NCBI GenBank assembly: GCA_951813565.1
Contig: OX638351.1
Coordinates: 4,160,001-4,224,000, forward strand
Direction: 5' to 3'
DNA: 64,000 nucleotides
Source of the DNA: an uncultured Poribacteria bacterium
Lineage (GTDB): Bacteria; Poribacteria; WGA-4E; WGA-3G
Made by a program: the position numbers and the translations under genes
Part shown: piece after piece, positions 1,806 through 55,049 of the stretch
How the letters are laid out: each line of letters opens with the position of its first letter
How positions within the stretch are numbered: the first letter of the stretch is position 1
Notes under the pieces: model-generated
What the model was told of the DNA's origin: nothing
Database searches by the model: none
What the model saw: the letters and a program-made list of their open reading frames with translations, nothing else

Positions 1806-1822
1806 CTTTTTGACATTTCATA

Positions 1823-2359
1823 GGGTGTGTGAAGTTTTTGTATAAATCCGCACAACTCCTATTGTAGGGGCGGGTCTCCGGGGAATGCCAAAAGGCATTC
1901 GGACCCGGTGAATGACTAAATGTCGTTCATACCGTTGATTTCTTGATTTAGTGCCCGCCCGTTGGATGGCACGTCCTGTGCAGTGGCGGGGCACAGAGAC
2001 CCCGCCCATAGGCGTCAATTTAAACACACAATTACCAGATTGCCTCTTGTGGGAGGGCTTTATAAGCCCGATTTATATGTATTTATCGGGGTTGAAAACC
2101 CGCCAAATGCCAAAAAGCGCATTTGGCGTTGATTTGGCAGCATGCCAAACGCGCATGCTGCGTTGATTTGGCAGCATGCCAAACGCGCATGCTGCGTTGA
2201 TTCACTCCCACAAGAGGGTATATCCTTAAATTGACGGCTATGGGGCACCAAATCAACGGTATGAATGCCTTTTGGCATTCCCCGGGACCCCGCCCTAAAG
2301 TGGAAAACGCCGCGTAATCATTGTAAATTGAACCTATGTAACCAAATATTTACACACCC
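1823..2359. mobile_element. Composite MITE, copy 1 (TIR GGGTGTGT(G/A)AA...TTTACACACCC), containing REP hairpins, a nested IS4-like MITE and GTTGATT hairpin units
   Basis: 11-bp terminal inverted repeat with 1 mismatch. Colinear with 6314-6917. No credible ORF. Confidence 0.85.
2007..2242. mobile_element. IS4-like MITE nested in a REP hairpin
   Basis: Ends CATAGGCGTCAATTTAA / TTAAATTGACGGCTATG. Flanked by a duplicated gggcac..gaccccgcc hairpin; the right copy is interrupted by a hairpin unit. Confidence 0.75.
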
Positions 2360-2488
2360 CATTCCATAATAAAACTTAAGAATCTAAAATAGGTGTTTTC
2401 TGTAGGTGTGGTTTAGAAGTTACTTTAAGCAACAAAATGTATTTTCACACCTACAGATATGATTAGTGAACTTAAGAATTGAAACTTA

Positions 2489-3217
2489 TTAATATCCAAA
2501 CGAATGCTTCAGGTTTCCCCATGTAAGCGTCATTTTTTGAACAGGGTGTACATCAAGTGATCCTTCACCCAATGAAATTGCAGTAATAATAGGTACCGCT
2601 CCCGTTTCCAAAGAGATTGCATCAATTGAAACAATCTCTGTATTCGGATGCGGATTTTCCCATTTCGTGGTAATCAATCCAGCTTTGTTGCAAGCCGGTT
2701 TTTCGTTTGCTGTCCAGCCCCATACAGAATTTTTATCAGCGAAATTTTTCTCTATATGGCACCAATCATGGGAATTATGACCTGTAATCATCTCAAGAGT
2801 TTCCTGTATTCCACCTTGATAATTCATGACAAATTTGTAACTTGGTCCGCCACCATGTGACCAACCTGTTGCATGGAAAAAATAGATGGATTTTGCGACA
2901 CCTTCCACAGCAATATCATTAACAGCCTTGGGCCACCTCTGCGCGTTAGTCCCAAAGAGAACGATGCCGCCATCGAAAATCTGGAATTTCACTTTTTTGT
3001 CGGGGCCCTCAAACTCTGCAATTTCACCTATCGGTAGGAGAGAATAGGTATTATCTCCTGCATTAAGTGTCCACCATTGATGTCCCACCAGTTTAGTGTT
3101 TGAGTAGGGTTCAAGGTCAATAGGCACAAATTCTTGTAATGCAAGTGTTTGTCCAGCACAAAAAAACGTAACCGCACAAAGCACTGCGATTATTAGAAAC
3201 AACTTAGCCAACTTCAT
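2489..3217 (-). CDS. Secreted hypothetical beta-sandwich protein with Poribacteria-type C-terminal tail
   Basis: N-terminal signal peptide, GGAGG RBS, ends LDVHPVQKMTLTWGNLK. Confidence 0.8.
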   Translation of the reverse strand: MKLAKLFLIIAVLCAVTFFCAGQTLALQEFVPIDLEPYSNTKLVGHQWWTLNAGDNTYSLLPIGEIAEFEGPDKKVKFQIFDGGIVLFGTNAQRWPKAVNDIAVEGVAKSIYFFHATGWSHGGGPSYKFVMNYQGGIQETLEMITGHNSHDWCHIEKNFADKNSVWGWTANEKPACNKAGLITTKWENPHPNTEIVSIDAISLETGAVPIITAISLGEGSLDVHPVQKMTLTWGNLKHSFGY

Positions 3218-6297: not shown

Positions 6298-6313
6298 GAA
6301 TTTGTCAAGAAAA

Positions 6314-6917
6314 GGGTGTGTAAAGTTTTTGTAGAAATCCGCACAACTCCTATTGTAGGGGCGGGTCTCCGGGGAATGCCAAAAGGCATTCGGACCGTTG
6401 ATTTGGTGCCTGCCCGTTGCATGGCACGTCCTGCGCAGTGGCGGGGCACCAAATCAACGGTATGAATGCCTTTTGGCATTCCCCGGGACCCCGCCCATAG
6501 GCATCAATTTAAGCACACAATTACCAGATTGCCTCTTGTGGGAGGGCTTTATAAGCCCGATTTATATGTATTTATCGGGGTTGAAAACCCGCAGCATGCC
6601 ACACGCGCATGCTGCGTTGATTTGGACAAATGCCAAAAGCAGAATCAACGCCGAGCGCGCGTATGGCACTCGTCGCATTTGGCGTTGATTTGGCAGCATG
6701 CCATACGCGCATGCTGCGTTGATTCGCTCCCACAAGAGGGTATATCCTTAAATTGACGGCTATGGAGCACCAAATCAAGAAATCAACGGTATGAATAACA
6801 TTTAGTTATTCACCGGGTATGAATGCCTTATGGCATTCCCCGGGACCCCGCTCTACAGTGGAAAACGCCGCGTAATCATTGCAAATTGAACCTATGTAAC
6901 CAAATATTTACACACCC
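6314..6917. mobile_element. Composite MITE, copy 2 (perfect 11-bp TIR GGGTGTGTAAA/TTTACACACCC)
   Basis: Same backbone as 1823-2359. Nested IS4-like MITE at 6496-6764. Different complement of hairpin units. Confidence 0.85.
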
Positions 6918-7123
6918 AATTGAAAAGAATCCGCATGATGTTCAAGCAAAAGTATCTGAACACCTATAATCGGGCAATTCGCGTAATTTATAGTAAAATT
7001 CACAATTACCTTTACATTGGCGAGGTTAGGAAACCTCGCCAGCGCATGCGTGTGGGAATTGCTGTTCATTGAAATGTGAACATATTATTGGATTTTACTA
7101 TAATATGGAGACCTGATCGCAGG

Positions 7124-17905: not shown

Positions 17906-18484
17906 TACAGTCTATCTCAGAAATCGTTAAATACGTTTCCTTACACAGGATCTACATTCATCGTAGGGGCGGGTCCCTGTGCCCGTATAGGTGTCAATTT
18001 AAGAACAAAATTGCTAAATTTTCTCTTGTGGGAGGGAAACCTTGTCCGCCCGATTGAACGAGATTCAAGCAGAAAATCCAAATCAAGAAATCAACGGTAT
18101 GAACGACATTTAGTCATTCACCGGGTATGAATGCCTTATGGCATTCCCCGTATGGCATGCTGCCAAATCAACGCTGAATGCGCGTGTAGGCATTCATCCA
18201 AATCAACGCAGCATGCGCGTATGGCATGCTGCCAAATCAACGCTGAATGCGCGTGTAGGCATTCATCGGGGTTGAAAACCCGCCAAATGCCAAAAAGCGC
18301 ATTTGGCGTTGATTCACTCCCACAAGAGGATATATCCTTAAATTGACACCTATGGGGCGGGTCCCTGTGCCCGCCCATTGTTTCCACTTATGAGAGAGAT
18401 GGCGAGGCACCAAATCAACGGTCCGAATGCCTTATGGCATTCCCCGGGACCTCGCCCTACAAATGATTTATGAGATACGCTCTA
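17906..18484. mobile_element. ATCTCA(T/G)AAAT-family MITE (TA-bounded) enclosing a REP doublet and nested elements
   Basis: TACAGTCTATCTCAGAAAT / ATTTATGAGATACGCTCTA (15/19 match). Related ends at 27097/27277 and 15777/17810. Confidence 0.55.
17986..18354. mobile_element. IS4-like MITE with a perfect 19-bp flanking direct repeat
   Basis: TIR (T)ATAGGTGTCAATTTAAG / CTTAAATTGACACCTAT(G). Direct repeat GGGCGGGTCCCTGTGCCCG at 17967-17985 and 18355-18373. Confidence 0.85.
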
Positions 18485-18573
18485 GTGTTACTGAGAGTTT
18501 ATATTCTCCGTTAGTAAGTGTTTGCGAAACCCAACAATTGCCTATATGTGTCGGGTTTCGCTATCGCTCTACC

Positions 18574-18921
18574 CTTATGTGTCAACTTAAGGATTTTCCG
18601 AATATGAATAATGTTCTTGAATCCCATAGGGATGCTATGTTTATAGCACGCTGTAAAGCGCCTCTTTAGCACCAGCGGTGGCAGCAAGCGCGTGTGGCAT
18701 GCTGCATGAGGTGTATCCTAAACAAACATATACACCTTTCGCCCCTCTGGGGCTTTGTGAATGGGTGTTAAGACTGTTCTGGACACCTTTCGCCCCTCTG
18801 GGGCTGAAACACACTTAAAAATACAGGTTAATTTCCTTAAGTTGACACCCGTCAAATGCCACAAGCGCATTTGGCGTTGATTTGGCTGAATGCCATAAAG
18901 CATCCACAGCGTTGATTTATA
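18574..18921. mobile_element. IS4-like MITE (second subfamily); right TIR interrupted by two hairpin units
   Basis: CTTATGTGTCAACTTAAG ... CTTAAGTTGACACC[units]TATA. Flanking repeat ggtttcgct(at/gc)cgctctacc is 20 bp. Confidence 0.65.
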
Positions 18922-18976
18922 GGTTTCGCTGCCGCTCTACCCAACGGACATTTATATTTGGATTTTATTATAGAAC

Positions 18977-19648
18977 TCACGTCATACTACGTTCAATTGA
19001 CCAGTGCCGATCAGTACTTTGGACGACAACTGCGCCGGGCATGCCCATCTGTATCAACATTTGATTGACTTCGGCAAGTGTGAAGGCAGCAAGGAAGGAA
19101 TCGTAATAGAGTTTCTGTTGATACGGGGTATCATCTGCGGCATAACGGTCGACAAAAGCTTGTGCATCTGCTGGCGTTTCTGGACGAATGAGGTCGCGAA
19201 TTAAAACCACCCCGTTCTGCTTCACAACTCTGCCCATCTCTTGGAGTGCTTTCATAGCATCATGAATATGATGTACAATGCTGTTGGAGATGAGTCCGTC
19301 AAAAGTATTGTCGGGATAGGGTAATGTTTTGGCATCAACATGTTTAAGCGTTATCTGATCGGTGAGATCGGCATCCGAGACATGGCGTTTCGCTATTTTT
19401 AACATCTCCTCGGATAGGTCTATGGCGGTGATGTGGATATTTGGACAACGTTGTGCGAGTAGGATGGGGATTTGGGCAGGTCCAGTGCCGACATCAAGAA
19501 AATGTCCTGTGTCTGCCCCGAGTTCAATAACCCGATTAACAAAGGCATCATCAACCTCTCCATGCTCCATCGCATCGTAAGCCTCGGCGGCTTCCGCTGT
19601 GTCCATGACTTCTGGTTCTACAATTCGTTTCATTTTCGGTTCTTTCAT
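18977..19648 (-). CDS. Class I SAM-dependent methyltransferase
   Basis: FLDVGTGPA, IDLSEEML and LPYPDNTFD motifs. Confidence 0.92.
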   Translation of the reverse strand: MKEPKMKRIVEPEVMDTAEAAEAYDAMEHGEVDDAFVNRVIELGADTGHFLDVGTGPAQIPILLAQRCPNIHITAIDLSEEMLKIAKRHVSDADLTDQITLKHVDAKTLPYPDNTFDGLISNSIVHHIHDAMKALQEMGRVVKQNGVVLIRDLIRPETPADAQAFVDRYAADDTPYQQKLYYDSFLAAFTLAEVNQMLIQMGMPGAVVVQSTDRHWSIERSMT

Positions 19649-20454: not shown

Positions 20455-20488
20455 AGGACGTTTCCTTAATCATTAGAACGGACATCAA

Positions 20489-20563
20489 TACACAACTAAA
20501 CACAAAGTTTCATTACACAACTAAACACAAAGTTTCATTACACAACTAAACACAAAGTTTCAT
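20489..20563. repeat. Perfect tandem repeat, 25 bp x3 (TACACAACTAAACACAAAGTTTCAT)
   Basis: Three identical abutting units, overlapping the stop codon of the upstream minus-strand gene. Confidence 0.95.
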
Positions 20564-21774
20564 TTTTGTGACTCTTCAGGCGTTGCTAACACGTAGGCGT
20601 AGTTTTTTCCAACGGCTATGCTGATCGGATGTTGCTCCTGAAGTGTTGTAGCAGATATAAAACGATGTTTTGCTTGCGCATCGAGGTCAATAACAGAAAG
20701 AAAACCCTTTGCGTTTACTACGTAAAGCAAATTCTGAGAAATTTGGAAATCAGTGATCGGTCCTAATAGATTATTTTCTTCAATGTCTATTGTTTCGGAC
20801 CATTGGTCTTGCATGGCGAACTGAATCTTGTTTGAACGTTCAACATAAGCATCTGTAGGTTTTCCTCGGGTGAGCGTCTTTTTCCCTGTCAAGTAGAGAT
20901 AAGCGAGATAGTTCCCCTCTAAGTTGTAGTGTTCAAGCCACTCCCACATATAAGGACGAACTTGGTTCTTTCCCCAGACGATAGTAATATCGCGATTTGG
21001 ATATCTATAACTTATCAATACCAGATTGTTATCGGTAACGCGGACCTTCTCATATCTACCACTTATCTCTAAGAGGTCGGTTCTATCTGAAAGTGCTGCC
21101 CAACCAGGGTCAGTAGAGTGTCTATGCTGCATCAGAATCTGTTCTACTTCTGTTCCTTTAGCTCTAACACCTACTAACGATGAAGGAGATATTGTCCCAA
21201 CAGACTCAACGAATTGAGCATTCCCGTTGTCTAAGGAATAAATGTGCAGATAGTCATGGATATCCATAATATATAGGTAGGATTTATGGATATCGAATTC
21301 TCTTATTACGTTTGCCTGGTGTAGTTTCACCATAGATTGATTCACTGGTTGAAGTCGATTGGAAACGTCTACGAGATAAATCTTCTGCTTGCTTGCAACA
21401 TAAACATGATTTCCAGATACGCGTGCCTTACCGATTCTGTCGGGGAACGCTATTGATGCCATATATGATGGTTGTTGTGGGTTGGAAACATCAATGACGT
21501 GTAGATGATTTTCAGATGTGACATAAGCGTGTTTCCCTGAAAGGACAACATTGTTGTTTTGACTAACACGAAACGGTAGGTTGATAGAAGTCATGAGTGC
21601 TGGATTTTTCGGATCTGTCGTGTCTACAACCGTGAAAATGTTCTCTTGCGGTTTTGCCTCGGCAACCGTATTTTGACTCTGCTCAAGAATACTCAGGTTA
21701 CACCCAATATTAATAATTGCGATTAACGTTATTATGACAAAAGTATAAGTTGACTTTGCAAAATCTATTCGCAC
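20560..21774 (-). CDS. LVIVD-repeat lipoprotein
   Basis: Lipobox NIGC; repeats such as SGKHAYV..LHVIDVSNPQQP and YLVDVSN. Confidence 0.8.
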   Translation of the reverse strand: MRIDFAKSTYTFVIITLIAIINIGCNLSILEQSQNTVAEAKPQENIFTVVDTTDPKNPALMTSINLPFRVSQNNNVVLSGKHAYVTSENHLHVIDVSNPQQPSYMASIAFPDRIGKARVSGNHVYVASKQKIYLVDVSNRLQPVNQSMVKLHQANVIREFDIHKSYLYIMDIHDYLHIYSLDNGNAQFVESVGTISPSSLVGVRAKGTEVEQILMQHRHSTDPGWAALSDRTDLLEISGRYEKVRVTDNNLVLISYRYPNRDITIVWGKNQVRPYMWEWLEHYNLEGNYLAYLYLTGKKTLTRGKPTDAYVERSNKIQFAMQDQWSETIDIEENNLLGPITDFQISQNLLYVVNAKGFLSVIDLDAQAKHRFISATTLQEQHPISIAVGKNYAYVLATPEESQK

Positions 21775-27277: not shown

Positions 27278-27521
27278 GTAGGCACACGCCGTGTGCCGTA
27301 ACCTTATTCAGGTAAAATGTAAGAGCCTCAATGAATTGCGCGACTACGAACGCGTTTCTTCCTAATTGCGATTCGGATAGATATACAATTATCGGGCTTG
27401 GAAAGCCCTCCCACAAGAATATCTATCACTAAATTGACACCAACGGTACGGTTAGGAAACCGCACCTACCAAGGCTGGAGAACTACTAAATTTGCACCTA
27501 TGGTAGCTAATGCGGAATACC

Positions 27522-27796
27522 CATAGGTGTAAACTTAAGGATTTTCCGAATATAAAAATGCTCTTCAGTCCCGTGAATCAACGCCAAATAAGCGTTTGGT
27601 ATTTGTCGGGGACGATATGTTGTCGTATCCATCTACCCATCAGAATATGTCGCTCCTACGGAGCTAAATAGGGGTGGTAATACATGGGCTATAAACATAT
27701 CGTCTCTACGAGACTAAATATGGGACAGTCTCAATAATCATGCGTATTTAGAGATGTTTACAATAACACAGATATTTTCTTAAGTTTACACCTATG
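27522..27796. mobile_element. IS4-like MITE
   Basis: Perfect 18-bp TIR CATAGGTGTAAACTTAAG / CTTAAGTTTACACCTATG. Shares the internal start aacttaaggattttccgaatat with 18574. Confidence 0.8.
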
Positions 27797-27911
27797 GGTA
27801 GAGCGAAGCGAAACCCAACAATTTAACCGTCTTGAGAGTCCTAAAGAGTTGGGTTTCACTTATTTTTCGGAAATATCGACCTCAAATAGCTCAACAACCT
27901 CTCTTTACGGT

Positions 27912-28163
27912 CAGGGTTATTTAGTTTTCGATTTTTCGGCTATATTTTTCACATTTTAATATAAACTAATACGTATGCAAAGTAGTAGGCACACGGCGTG
28001 TGCCGCACACCCAAAATGTAAAGCGGACGGCACGCGGAGTGTGCCTACTACCTTTAACAACGCTAAGTGATACATAAGGGTAGAGCACAAGCGAAACCCG
28101 ACGGACGATATAAACTAACAGTAATATTCATTAACTGAAAATTCTTAAAACTAAATAACCCTG
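27912..28163. mobile_element. MITE with 17-bp TIR CAGGGTTATTTAGTTTT and 9-bp TSD CTTTACGGT
   Basis: Perfect TIR and perfect TSD (27903-27911, 28164-28172). Carries a GTAGGCACAC..GTGTGCCTAC REP doublet. Confidence 0.88.
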
Positions 28164-28288
28164 CTTTACGGTCTGTTTTTATTGTCCATTTCCGTTCTAC
28201 CCCACCGAATGCCGTAGGCGCATTCGGTGTTGATTCCCTACGGGATTTATCAAACTCACGTTATTCTTAAATTGACGGCTATGGGGAT

Positions 28289-28732
28289 TTACATAGAGTA
28301 GTAATAGATTATACCAATAATGATAGACACGACCAATATGACTGCGGCAAAACCGATCCCAATCCATCTACCTACAGTTTTTGCTTTTCCCCTCGCTTCT
28401 TTTTCCCATTGGCGTTCATATTCCAAAGTTTCCTCAACGGTTCCATCAGTCTTATCCTGTTCAATGATTGCAAGGGGGTCTGGCATGCTATAAGTAGAAC
28501 CCGATCCCATTGACCCCATCAAATCTTTATACACCCACTCGGCGTGACGTTTACACACATATTCCCCAAGTGTGATCACAATAGGTTGAATATCTCTATT
28601 CTTGATATAAGGCCGTCTTCCTACAATACGATGTTTATTCTTTAGAGAACCTCTCCTTAGTAAGGATTGTATCTCAATAGACTCAAATTCATTGAGATTA
28701 ACCATCTTACCATCGGTATCTTGGATGTACAT
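28289..28732 (-). CDS. Hypothetical protein with C-terminal TM helix
   Basis: 147-aa ORF, GAGG RBS, hydrophobic C-terminus. Confidence 0.65.
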   Translation of the reverse strand: MYIQDTDGKMVNLNEFESIEIQSLLRRGSLKNKHRIVGRRPYIKNRDIQPIVITLGEYVCKRHAEWVYKDLMGSMGSGSTYSMPDPLAIIEQDKTDGTVEETLEYERQWEKEARGKAKTVGRWIGIGFAAVILVVSIIIGIIYYYSM

Positions 28733-48376: not shown

Positions 48377-48696
48377 ACCTAAGTTGCTACGGACAAGATT
48401 TCAAGCTTGTAGACATTGCTTTTTACTGAAAAACAAGGATTTCCAGCTAATTCTTATGCTTTCTTTTTTAAATCGGGGTTAGAAACCCCTCCTACAAGAG
48501 CATTCGCGATATAGGTAACGTGAGTTTGATAATTAACTGGACAGGCAAAAATTGAACAGAGAACGGGCATATTTGCTGAAAAAATCGTTATTTTGGTGTT
48601 TTTAACCCCCTAAATCCCCTTATCAGAGGGACTTTAAGAGGAAATGTGGAAGTTCTAACTATTTATCAAACTCACGTTATAGGTAGCAACTTGGGT
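48377..48696. mobile_element. IS982-derived MITE with 7-bp TSD TATCTAA
   Basis: Ends ACCTAAGTTGCTAC / GTAGCAACTTGGGT are identical to those of the IS982 at 28824-29749. Confidence 0.88.
48518..48677. mobile_element. ACGTGAG-family MITE nested in the IS982-derived MITE, 8-bp TSD TATAGGTA
   Basis: Perfect 15-bp TIR ACGTGAGTTTGATAA / TTATCAAACTCACGT. Confidence 0.88.
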
Positions 48697-48905: not shown

Positions 48906-49670
48906 ATGAAAGTTCATAACATTTTCGCGGTATTTGTTGTATTGCTGATGTTGACTGTATCAATATCAGGATTTGCAGTGGTACAAGAAAAAAACCTTGT
49001 TGGTTGGTGGCTCTTTGATGACGGGTCAGAAGAAACAGGTAACTGGGATGATATTGCTCTCCAAGGTGCTAAATTCGAGAAAGGGCAATTAGTCGTTGAA
49101 ACTGGAAAATGGGCACATGCTTTGGGCTATAAAGGTCCCGATATTACGGAATTGAGTTTGGTGACTTGGGTTAGTTTGGACAGTTACGCGAAGACAAACG
49201 GTTCGGCACTCTGCTTGGATAAACGGACCATAGATCAATTTTGTGCGATCGTCTGGGCAGAGAGGGTAGAAAAACAGTGGATGCCAGGAAGTAGTCATTT
49301 TAGGCGTACAGCAGATTTTCCTAAAGCTGTCACTGAAAAAGAAACTGGAGAAATGGTTTTCTTGGTAATCACCTATGAGGATGTCAACGGTCAGTATGAG
49401 ATTACCGGTTATCGTAATGGTGAAAGCCTTGGTGGTTTCAAGGCAACTACGGGACTCAGAACATGGCCTAAAGATGATGCCGAAGCGATTTGGGGTAAAC
49501 GTCATGTCAACGGGCTTGCTGGACCTGGCGAACTCAATGCACATATTGAAGAATCTCGAATTTACAATATCGCATTAACAGAAGACGAGGTCCAAGCTAT
49601 TGGCAAAGGTGATCTTCCAGTAGAACCACGTGGTAAACTCGCCACTCGTTGGGCGAAGATAAAAAGGTAA
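48906..49670 (+). CDS. Secreted LamG/concanavalin A-like domain protein
   Basis: Signal peptide; LVGWWLFDD and IEESRIYNIALT motifs; tail PVEPRGKLATRWAKIK. Confidence 0.85.
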   Translation: MKVHNIFAVFVVLLMLTVSISGFAVVQEKNLVGWWLFDDGSEETGNWDDIALQGAKFEKGQLVVETGKWAHALGYKGPDITELSLVTWVSLDSYAKTNGSALCLDKRTIDQFCAIVWAERVEKQWMPGSSHFRRTADFPKAVTEKETGEMVFLVITYEDVNGQYEITGYRNGESLGGFKATTGLRTWPKDDAEAIWGKRHVNGLAGPGELNAHIEESRIYNIALTEDEVQAIGKGDLPVEPRGKLATRWAKIKR

Positions 49671-49767: not shown

Positions 49768-50535
49768 ATGAGAACAAAAATTTACTGTGTATGTGCGGTG
49801 TTGCTAATGGTTGGCATGCCGATGTCAGTTTTCGCTCAGGTACAAGAAGATAACCTCGTCGGTTGGTGGCGGTTTGATAGTGCGAAGGAAGAAACAGGTA
49901 ACTTTGGAGATGTTGTCCTTCATGGTGGTGCTACGATAGAAGATGGCCAATTGGTTGTTGCTAATGGAAAATGGGCACATTCCTTGGACTACACGGGTCC
50001 CGACATTACAGAACTAACACTGGCATCTTGGGTTACTTTGGATGATTACGCAAAAACAAACGGTTCCGCGCTTACCTTGGATGAGTTGTCAACAGATCAG
50101 TTTTGCGGAATCGTTTGGGCTGAAAGGGTTAATAAACAGTGGATGCCGGGAAGTAGTCATTTCCGCCGTACGGATGATTTCCCTAATGCTGTTACTGAGC
50201 CAGAAACAGGCGACAGAGTTTTCATCGCTATCACGTACAAGAACGTTAACAACCAATATGAGATCACTGGTTACCGAAACGGTGAAAGCATGGGGAGTTT
50301 CAGTAGAGGCGATCTCAGAACTTGGGAGGCAGGTGATTCTGAAGCAATTTGGGGTAAACGGCATGTAAATGGACTTGCTGGTCCTGGCGATCTCAATGCT
50401 CACATTGAGGAATCCCGAATCTACAATGTCGCTTTGACTGCTGATGAGATTATGAGTTTGCATATTGGCGCACTTACACCAGTTGAACCACAAAGTAAAC
50501 TTGCCACCCAGTGGGGCGCACTCAAAGCCAAATAG
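49768..50535 (+). CDS. Secreted LamG/concanavalin A-like domain protein (tandem paralogue)
   Basis: Closely similar to 48906-49670; tail PVEPQSKLATQWGALK. Confidence 0.85.
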   Translation: MRTKIYCVCAVLLMVGMPMSVFAQVQEDNLVGWWRFDSAKEETGNFGDVVLHGGATIEDGQLVVANGKWAHSLDYTGPDITELTLASWVTLDDYAKTNGSALTLDELSTDQFCGIVWAERVNKQWMPGSSHFRRTDDFPNAVTEPETGDRVFIAITYKNVNNQYEITGYRNGESMGSFSRGDLRTWEAGDSEAIWGKRHVNGLAGPGDLNAHIEESRIYNVALTADEIMSLHIGALTPVEPQSKLATQWGALKAK

Positions 50536-50593: not shown

Positions 50594-50986
50594 AATACCA
50601 TTTCTAATATATTATGTGTCATTTGCAAGAGTATTTTGTAGGAGCGACCAGGAGGTCGCTCCTACAGAAGAAAATCGGGGTTGAAAACCCGACAAATGCC
50701 AAAAAGCGCATTTGGTGTTGATTTGGCAGCATGCCGGACGCGCATGCTGCGTTGATTCGCTCCCACAAGAGGGTATATCCTTAAATTGACGCATAAGGTA
50801 CGTTTTCCTAACTGCTCCATAAATATGAATCAAGTTAATGTGGTATTATGTGTGATTTGCAAGAGTATTTTGTAGGAGCGACCTCCTGGTCGCGACCAGG
50901 AGGTCGCTCCTACAGAAGAAAGGTATCTTCAGCAGACAATAACAGTTGAATCTCTTAATGAGAGAGTATTTTTTAGAATTGGTATA
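50594..50986. mobile_element. TACCA(A/T)TTCTA-family MITE region with REP doublets, an internal direct repeat and a fragment of the IS4-like MITE
   Basis: Ends match 15661-15778. GTAGGAGCGACC...GGTCGCTCCTAC palindromes occur twice. Two GTTGATT units at 50691-50757. Confidence 0.6.
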
Positions 50987-54787: not shown

Positions 54788-54831
54788 TGTTAATATCTGA
54801 GAGTGACAATGTTAATATCTGAGAGTGACAA
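54788..54831. repeat. Tandem duplication, 22 bp x2 (TGTTAATATCTGAGAGTGACAA)
   Basis: Two identical abutting units just upstream of the protease start. Confidence 0.9.
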
Positions 54832-55049
54832 TCTTTCCGAGTGCTGATTCTGCGTTAATCATACACAAAATAGAGGGTTCTGTAAACTGTTTTGCTATTA
54901 TGACAATGAAATTGGTCTTCTATTGAAAAATTATATGACAAATTATTAAAAGTCAAGTAAAATAGTAACAGAATGTTTAAGCACATGACCGAAATTGTTG
55001 CAGTCGTAAGAAAATAGGCTTATTTTGACATAAAAACGGAGATTTAATT

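Follow-up and report, generated by a model that had tools for sequence, protein, structure and literature searches.

Very small hairpin units with a GTTGATT foot, a probable non-autonomous insertion family restricted to a genus of Poribacteria

A hairpin unit of 34-35 nt with precise insertion boundaries

We analysed a stretch of 64,000 nucleotides from an uncultured Poribacteria bacterium (assembly GCA_951813565.1, contig OX638351.1, positions 4,160,001 to 4,224,000 of the forward strand; the whole stretch is called the window below, and window coordinates are counted from its first letter), which contains numerous copies of a short hairpin unit followed by the heptamer GTTGATT, referred to here as the foot. 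These units probably constitute a non-autonomous and very small family of selfish DNA, consisting of little more than hairpin plus foot and inserted 3' of a C. The canonical (type I) unit has a 9-bp stem (NNNNNATGC/GCATNNNNN) which terminates in ATGC/GCAT, a 7- or 8-nt loop with the pattern C...GC, the GTTGATT heptamer and two variable bases, giving a total of 34-35 nt. Alignment of the units showed that the heptamer and parts of the loop are invariant in type I, and the complete foot can be written as nine nucleotides, GTTGATT-Y-N. Two other hairpin classes carry the same foot, namely type II (35 nt, GGGGAATGCC-loop-GGCATTC-NNACC-GTTGATT-TG) and type III (37 nt). A preliminary description of this DNA had defined the unit as a stem with a TGC..GCA core followed by GTTGATT, and this was recovered at all the coordinates it listed, although that list mixed the three hairpin classes and omitted the two variable bases. 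On the opposite strand there is a conserved head, AATCAAC, located 5' of the hairpin foot, which is the anatomy of a repetitive extragenic palindrome (REP).

The stem sequences vary while pairing is retained. In an alignment of 15 units from the window, 96% of the cells are paired and changes on both sides are seen at six of the nine pairs; none of 500 shuffles was as good, and pairing with a slid partner gave only 16-51%, which agrees with the covariation of the outer stems reported in the preliminary description. The same was true for 147 distinct hairpins genome-wide, with 81-99% of the cells canonical per stem position and two to four pair types at stem positions 3, 4, 5 and 8. Folding as single-stranded DNA placed five of six units ahead of their shuffles (z -2.0 to -4.4), the sixth having a z of -0.6. 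The covariation of the stem is real, and in palindromic DNA it is on its own proof of neither an RNA nor a function; a search of Rfam 15 gave no matches at gathering score in the window.

Copy number and array structure

The GTTGATT heptamer is present 37 times in the window versus 16.5 ± 3.9 times in 100 shuffles, none of which reached 37. A scripted search listed 14 strict type I, four intact type II and three type III units, and when interrupted or decayed copies found by eye are added (1880-1951, 6625-6692, 6770-6842, 18078-18150, 18885-18919 and 27574-27607) the window contains approximately 27 units, in line with the approximately 25 counted earlier. In the complete genome holding the window (G000; a single, closed contig of 5.43 Mb with 43% G+C), an exact foot combined with at least eight of nine stem pairs was found at 470 sites, of which 446 had the ATGC-type core, versus 12 sites in the reversed genome (none with the core) and 6-32 sites for each of 20 permuted 7-mers. 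Under slightly wider rules the number of core units was 458. These make up 366 arrays or solos, subdivided into 308 solo units, 42 pairs, nine triplets and seven longer arrays (one of four units, four of five, one of six and one of nine), and in all 92 cases the next unit of an array starts 2 nt after GTTGATT.

When the sequences preceding the remaining 1912 feet were clustered, they included approximately 200 type II and 90 type III-like copies, and also about 170 3' halves of type I units which were split by other units. The further foot-bearing classes sum to approximately 486 copies, and the 1284 singleton feet are near the chance expectation of about 1400. Because the 458 core units are joined by these further classes, the superfamily with the GTTGATT foot comes to approximately 940 copies, or about 0.6% of the genome.

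Filled and empty sites

To define the boundaries, the hairpin, the foot and 2 nt were removed from each array, 11 nt of each flank were joined, and the resulting 22-mer was searched for in the genome. An exact empty site was present elsewhere in the genome for 148 of the 366 arrays, and for 97 of these at that offset only; matches at other offsets were mostly due to runs of C, which leave the exact position undefined, and among the 159 arrays for which some match existed there are 11 that require a different offset (for example a 33-nt form which has an extra 5' C and lacks the tail). Pairs of filled and empty sites, as would be expected for the mobile units proposed earlier, are thus found genome-wide. 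Comparison of filled and empty sites in this genome gave no target duplication at the insertions, and there were no direct repeats at the unit boundaries which could be used for slippage. The most common host is a GTGG-tagged REP (CTCTTGTGGGAG-GGGTTTTCAACCCC), of which 133 copies are empty and 66 are filled at one hairpin foot, with 143 empty copies for the other hairpin foot; inspection of four host sites showed no excision footprints beyond single variants.

Similar results were obtained for the type II units, as 107 of 115 are located between C and G and carry TG as their tail. For 40 of the 115 there are empty sites that agree with the insertion of 35 nt at C^G (^ indicates the insertion point), and many of these empty sites are intact type I loops (ATGCCATAC^GCGCAT). 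Furthermore, eight aligned paralogs of a miniature inverted-repeat transposable element (MITE) of approximately 500 bp, two of which are in the window, show whole-unit differences at five positions and are otherwise near-identical, and one of these differences is a unit in the loop of another unit (6641-6674). Units therefore nest in REPs, in MITEs and in each other's loops. Contigs from public sequencing runs (X1, X4, X9 and X10) stop at the repeat clusters at 1873-2332, 6340-7078 and 17950-19226, with none bridging a unit at its own locus, and a metagenome contig identical to the window (L157) terminates inside a unit, so that the units break short-read Poribacteria assemblies exactly at these repeats.

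Target, orientation and tail

The 366 arrays represent 103 unrelated flank contexts, of which 67 are singletons, and hence the earlier statement that all units lie inside REP or MITE hairpins is correct for the window and not for the genome as a whole. A C is present at -1 in 89 of the 103 contexts, at -2 in 67 and at -3 in 68, while CCC is found upstream in 59 and GGG downstream in none, and therefore the unit strand continues from the C-rich strand. With such a fixed strand rule, insertions are found at both feet of a symmetric REP hairpin, with their orientation set by the strand. In other species, 120 units without a preceding foot (114 loci) gave the same picture, with 111 following C and 101 following CCC. 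The preliminary description had pointed to TTGAT-type motifs as cleavage sites of IS200/IS605 TnpA, and TTGAT is the insertion target of ISDra2. The TTGAT within the foot is not the insertion point here, as insertion is after C or CCC and array neighbours start 2 nt beyond GTTGATT.

The two variable bases at the 3' end (the tail) are tied to the base that follows. In this genome the next base is G in 40 of the 44 contexts with the tail TG, and C in 22 of the 29 with the tail CA, and the combinations of tail and next base in the other species are TGG (76), CAC (21) and CGC (11). In both data sets the tails CA, CG or CC go with a following C, and TG with a following G, which hints at a junction with a one-base overlap or microhomology.

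Independent insertions or hitch-hiking on host repeats

The stem subfamilies differ in their distribution over hosts. The ACCGAATGC subfamily has 20 of its 23 copies after CTACCCC in one host repeat, and all 12 copies of the GACGAGTGC subfamily are tied to one host, whereas the GCAGCATGC and GCCAAATGC stems are each found in at least 12 flank contexts. Several subfamilies are confined to one host repeat, together with which they have multiplied, and arrays have been duplicated in tandem, so that there have been far fewer independent insertions than there are copies. These insertions still number several dozen or more, given that 12 or more contexts were found for either of the two main stem types.

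It is unlikely that the units are immobile, with a few ancient insertions having been multiplied together with their host REPs and MITEs and by gene conversion and replication slippage. Such a history would fit the 66 arrays sharing one host context, the strict host link of the two subfamilies described above, the arrays of 5-9 units being identical copies or having two-unit periods, and the origin of every empty site from paralogs, but it does not readily give 103 unrelated contexts (67 of them singletons) with the same exact boundaries and CCC^ rule, two stem subfamilies spread over at least 12 contexts each, and units in the loops of unrelated units, and slippage would have no direct repeats at the boundaries to work with.

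Distribution in Poribacteria and other genomes

A covariance model of the unit was used to scan this and related genomes, as the preliminary description had proposed, with 150 candidate regions scored per genome and counts that are consequently lower bounds. In the first draw, every one of the 24 other species of the genus gave a match to the model (strong in 23), and a strong match was also obtained for genome G051. Units were found in 25 of the 26 genomes of the genus scanned, and genome G001 of the same genus contains a few weak relics in the same REP contexts and no canonical units. The three sister families gave a weak match in at most one of 16 genomes. An exact-pattern scan of 185,579 species genomes identified at least 114 loci, and among the 80 matches listed 79 are from Candidatus Poribacteria and one from an 'uncultured bacterium'; viral contigs gave no matches to the unit. 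The unit is restricted to this Poribacteria genus, and we found no descriptions of such repeats in Poribacteria in the literature searched (on RAYT and on palindromic or intergenic repeats). The same stems are kept in species with genes that are only 76-86% identical, and this persistence despite gene divergence suggests that a mover conserved throughout the genus continues to select for them.

A possible mechanism and the points against it

That mobility of the units is an active and independent process is, in our view, likely. The complete unit of 34-35 nt is placed just 3' of a C, usually CCC and often within CpG, in one orientation and without target duplication; its sites are in REPs, which are short palindromes rich in G+C, in MITEs and in the loops of units that were there before. 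A trans-acting enzyme, working on single-stranded and hairpin-forming DNA, may cut and rejoin both sides of the single hairpin, and subsequent spread would be by riding on host repeats and by local tandem duplication. The exact ends, absence of duplication, strand and orientation rule, short target, preference for DNA that can form hairpins, and single conserved hairpin with a motif at one foot follow the logic of the single-strand HUH systems known from IS200/IS605 elements and from REPs, and the monomeric REP nuclease TnpA-REP cuts both sides of one hairpin. As the anatomy differs from those systems and no partner enzyme was found, the case for a single-strand mechanism is evenly balanced, and a Y1 HUH enzyme as the mover is conceivable and rather doubtful. 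The earlier notion of a structure-defined mobile parasite of REPs is hence retained as far as it concerns an insertion module with filled and empty pairs in REPs, MITEs and itself, and not for its link to HUH enzymes.

Several observations weigh against an independently moving, HUH-like family. The unit has a single hairpin, and a guide would not fit between its cleavage site and foot, in contrast to the ends of IS200/IS605 elements. No differences in unit insertion were seen between strains, so that all pairs of filled and empty sites come from paralogs, and exact deletion or gene conversion between these could yield some of the pairs. The arrays of five to nine units consist of identical copies or have two-unit periods, and such homogeneity means that they have grown by local tandem duplication rather than by repeated insertion. 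That the tail goes with the base following it is unexpected under simple cut-and-paste and is explained by no model that we considered.

The remaining points concern the enzyme. In agreement with the preliminary description there is no gene for moving the unit in the window itself, but the HUH enzyme which it had proposed to act from elsewhere did not emerge. G000 has ten Y1_Tnp matches, consisting of five tnpA genes, two 174-aa proteins and three proteins resembling REP-associated tyrosine transposases (RAYTs). The five tnpA genes belong to an IS605-type element with tnpB, and its left end (TTAG^CACTCCCC...) and right end (...TATGAC^) show no likeness to the unit. The two 174-aa Y1 proteins are flanked by a CACCTTTCGC-type repeat, and the three RAYT-like genes, all outside the window (G000:C1 242044-242490, 3549548-3550003 and 5070797-5071273), are each flanked by their own GT[AG]G REP family, with one of them containing an in-frame TAG and one being followed by an array of approximately eight REPs. 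The ten Y1 genes of G000 thus pair with other cognate repeats and not with the units. Y1_Tnp was not found in genomes G001 and G024, in G010 with its 58 or more units, or in the closed genome G023 with 93 or more, RVT_1 was not found in G023 or G001, and IS110 was present in none of five genomes tested. The best match to the integron integrase IntI scored 33 bits versus a cut-off of 265, and the 84 open reading frames (ORFs) with feet on both sides are all ordinary genes, without a recurrent enzyme. With no gene recurrently flanked by units, and no enzyme tied to them, the family is an orphan.

The majority of the 51 TnpB matches (Cas12f1-like_TNB; e.g. C1:185903-186106) in G000 are stand-alone copies of 375 aa from one IS605-family element, placed after TTAG and ending in TATGAC, and there are 97 TnpB matches in G003. 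The repeat TATACACCTTTCGCCCCTCTGGGGCT at 18700-18800 of the window also flanks a 174-aa Y1 gene (G000:C1 3098010-3098354), and is possibly the cognate repeat of that gene.

Alternative movers and functions

A conserved and vertically inherited activity of the genus, different from RAYT and IS200 enzymes, might recognise the hairpin plus GTTGATT and splice it 3' of CCC in single-stranded DNA, and while we hold this to be rather unlikely, it would explain units shared at 15-24% gene divergence and in a closed genome lacking Y1 matches. If true, this would be new transposition chemistry, and the units would be among the smallest autonomous-looking insertion modules known.

It is quite improbable that the units are ordinary cognate REPs of a resident RAYT (a Y1 HUH enzyme), in a classic REPtron with an unusual head. 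The opposite strand does read as head AATCAAC plus palindrome, a foot-bearing unit is present 100-150 bp upstream of two of the three RAYT-like genes of G000, and G001 has neither canonical units nor Y1_Tnp; as a single case, this last observation is compatible with an HUH mover. The units upstream of the RAYT genes nevertheless lie inside the flanking GT[AG]G REPs, and 11 orthologous RAYT loci in other species are flanked by GT[AGT]G REPs, with a unit nearby at only one locus. With regard to the co-occurrence test proposed in the preliminary description, RAYT relatives were found in 25 of 40 genomes of the genus and units in 25 of the 26 scanned, with G023 having units where Y1_Tnp was not found.

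Movement via an RNA intermediate that undergoes reverse transcription into nicked DNA, which has been proposed for the cyanobacterial SDR elements, is highly improbable here. The variable 2-nt 3' tail, with its dependence on the next base, resembles a primed or microhomology junction, and reverse-transcriptase genes are present in G000, but RVT_1 was not found in G023 with its 93 or more units, there is no orientation bias with transcription, and 5' truncations are absent, the 5' junction being the precise one.

With regard to genomic setting, the units are essentially intergenic, and the 15 arrays found in long stop-to-stop frames are mostly at the extreme upstream end. In co-directional spacers there was no orientation bias with transcription (124 vs 104, p=0.21), convergent and divergent spacers are used alike (58 and 60), and with regard to replication-strand bias the 171:195 split of the arrays is uninformative, the cumulative GC skew (minimum at 0.50 Mb, maximum at 5.06 Mb) giving no usable origin or terminus. 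Selection for a role as functional cis-element, be it protein-binding site, terminator or RNA stabiliser, may be suspected from the invariant foot and loop parts (ATCAA within the foot being presumably part of the consensus for integration host factor) and from the same stems in species with 76-86% gene identity, and is very improbable, given positions that are not conserved between species, the absence of bias for transcription direction or convergent spacers, arrays of up to nine units, units inside other repeats, and the lack of an Rfam match. There is no sign of a cellular function, and the units are probably selfish rather than functional.

Comparison with known systems

REPs are defined by a hairpin with a conserved motif 5' of its foot, and for IS200/IS605 elements insertion is strand-specific and takes place 3' of a short target (PMC6006769). 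REP super-families tagged GTAG or CGTC have been described, some of which insert into small palindromes (PMC3733652). The units resemble REPs and bacterial interspersed mosaic elements (BIMEs) in being extragenic, high-copy and imperfect palindromes of 20-40 nt with a motif at one foot, in having species- or genus-specific sequences and covarying stems, and in the presumed single-strand processing of a single hairpin (PMC6006769, PMC3733652). They differ in that their head is AATCAAC and not GT[AG]G or CGTC, that no Y1 gene is flanked by units, that units are mostly solo or head-to-tail and not in inverted doublets, and that genuine GTAG REPs in their own genome serve as insertion sites. The different tag and absence of RAYT association therefore separate them from REPs on two defining features, although the family works in a REP-like way. 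Tagged hairpins in small G+C-rich palindromes, hundreds of which are empty, are also found with the GTAG-23 REPs of Thermomicrobium roseum, but these are GTAG-tagged and RAYT-associated (Di Nocera et al. 2013, PMC3733652), whereas in G000 the inserted unit carries another tag and the GTAG REPs are the targets.

Likewise, insertion 3' of a short sequence with strand and orientation specificity and without target duplication, and hairpins of approximately 20-25 nt as the recognised feature, are shared with IS200/IS605 elements and palindrome-associated transposable elements (PMC6006769), but the unit is a single hairpin from base 1 instead of having distinct left and right ends, each with a guide and a subterminal hairpin, it is unlike the ends of the resident IS605/TnpB element, and the base after the unit is also constrained. 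The units are not MITEs, as they lack both terminal inverted repeats and a target-site duplication, and they do not match integron attC sites with their paired core sites (RYYYAAC ... GTTRRRY), as there is only one GTT-type site per unit and insertion is not at G^TT.

Closest in kind are the small dispersed repeats (SDRs) of Nostoc. The SDR1-8 elements of Nostoc punctiforme, reported by Elhai et al. in 2008, are said to be 21-27 nt in length with a shared hairpin showing compensatory changes, and reportedly insert into MITEs and their own copies, are found in one clade and have an unknown mover. By this description, the likeness is that of a very small, dispersed and conserved hairpin repeat nested in itself and in MITEs; the differences are the other phylum, the other sequence, the length of 34-35 nt and the explicit target rule of the unit (3' of CCC, in one orientation). 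A cyanobacterial host for the window was considered and rejected, since G000 has no Photo_RC and its 50 HIP1 sites are at chance level. As REPs and cyanobacterial SDR elements are objects of the same kind as these units, the 'new class' of the preliminary description is too strong a term.

The spread of very short repeats such as REPs and SDRs is only partly understood, and here the boundaries, target, absence of duplication and self-nesting can be read directly from a single closed genome with approximately 940 copies, and also from dozens of species related to it. The units offer a precise substrate and target for biochemical tests, and the near-negative G001 and the unit-bearing, Y1-less G023 provide a comparative data set for finding the enzyme.

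Units and hosts in the window

The first cluster of units is in a composite MITE of approximately 500 bp (1822..2363, + strand) with terminal inverted repeats GGGTGTGTAAA, which consists of two GTAG REPs, one GTGG REP and the small units, has a second copy at 6313-6921, and is present in at least eight copies in the genome. In the first copy, a type II unit (GGGGAATGCC..GGCATTC..ACC plus foot; 1880..1951, +) is split by a 37-nt type III unit (1906-1942), and its host is the loop of a GTAG-tagged REP (GGGGCGGG...). Next comes an array in which type I units of 35, 34 and 34 nt (2102..2204, +) have the stems GCCAAATGC, GCAGCATGC and GCAGCATGC; this array sits after GGGGTTGAAAACCC of a REP and is followed by CTCCCACAAGAGG. 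Tandem Repeats Finder reported a period of 34 at 2107-2202 (2.8 copies), in accordance with the head-to-tail period of 34 bp noted earlier, and a period of 35 at 18149-18262. A 35-nt type II unit (2249..2283, -) lies within a REP loop, and paralogs without this unit exist.

The second copy contains a 35-nt type II unit after ...GGTCTCC (6371..6405, +), for which contigs of runs X4 and X9 represent an empty form joining 6370 to 6406, possibly a paralog, and a type II unit (6450..6484, -) found in only one of the eight paralogous MITE copies. An array of three type I units (6591..6726, +; units at 6591-6624, 6625-6692 and 6693-6726) has a fourth unit with the stem GACGAGTGC in the loop of the middle unit (6641-6674, -), and a type II unit at 6770..6842 (-) is again split by a type III unit (6779-6815).

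At 18078..18150 (-) a type II unit is split by a type III unit (18087-18123) and is itself within the loop of a split type I unit. The array at 18164..18267 (-) has three type I units with the stems GATGAATGC, GCAGCATGC and GATGAATGC, the solo type I unit at 18282..18316 (+) occupies the REP site GGGGTTGAAAACCC^CTCCCAC and has the tail CA, a type II unit lies within a REP loop at 18411..18445 (-), and at 18851..18919 (+) a type I unit (18851-18884) is followed by a decayed unit (18885-18919). Further downstream are a type I unit with a weaker stem (GACAAATAC) placed after GTCCCC (27574..27607, -), a type I unit of the ACCGAATGC subfamily with the tail CC (28204..28237, +), and an array of two type I units at a REP site (50691..50759, +). 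The latter is in the filled form of a host which spans 50673-50770, and the empty host REP ATCGGGGTTAGAAACCCC^TCCTACAAGAG without a unit is present at 48473..48501 (+), as quoted in the preliminary description, and is of the kind with 133 empty sites in the genome.

The composite is absent from the orthologous spacer in nine related species. This spacer, between the genes at 84-1733 and 2489-3217, where the first composite MITE is located, is 200-300 bp without the composite in six related species, and in one other species the orthologous spacer has a REP with a decayed unit. The kilobase at 27300-28300 consists almost entirely of repeat modules, with REPs, a long palindrome (GTAGTAGGCACACGGCGTGTGCC...) and two solo units. 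Finally, the window also contains unrelated short tandem repeats at 20485-20564 (25 nt, 3.2 copies) and 54788-54832 (22 nt, two copies), and the adjacent ORFs at 48980-49655 and 49839-50518, encoding 254 and 255 aa with 73% DNA identity, are tandem paralogs.

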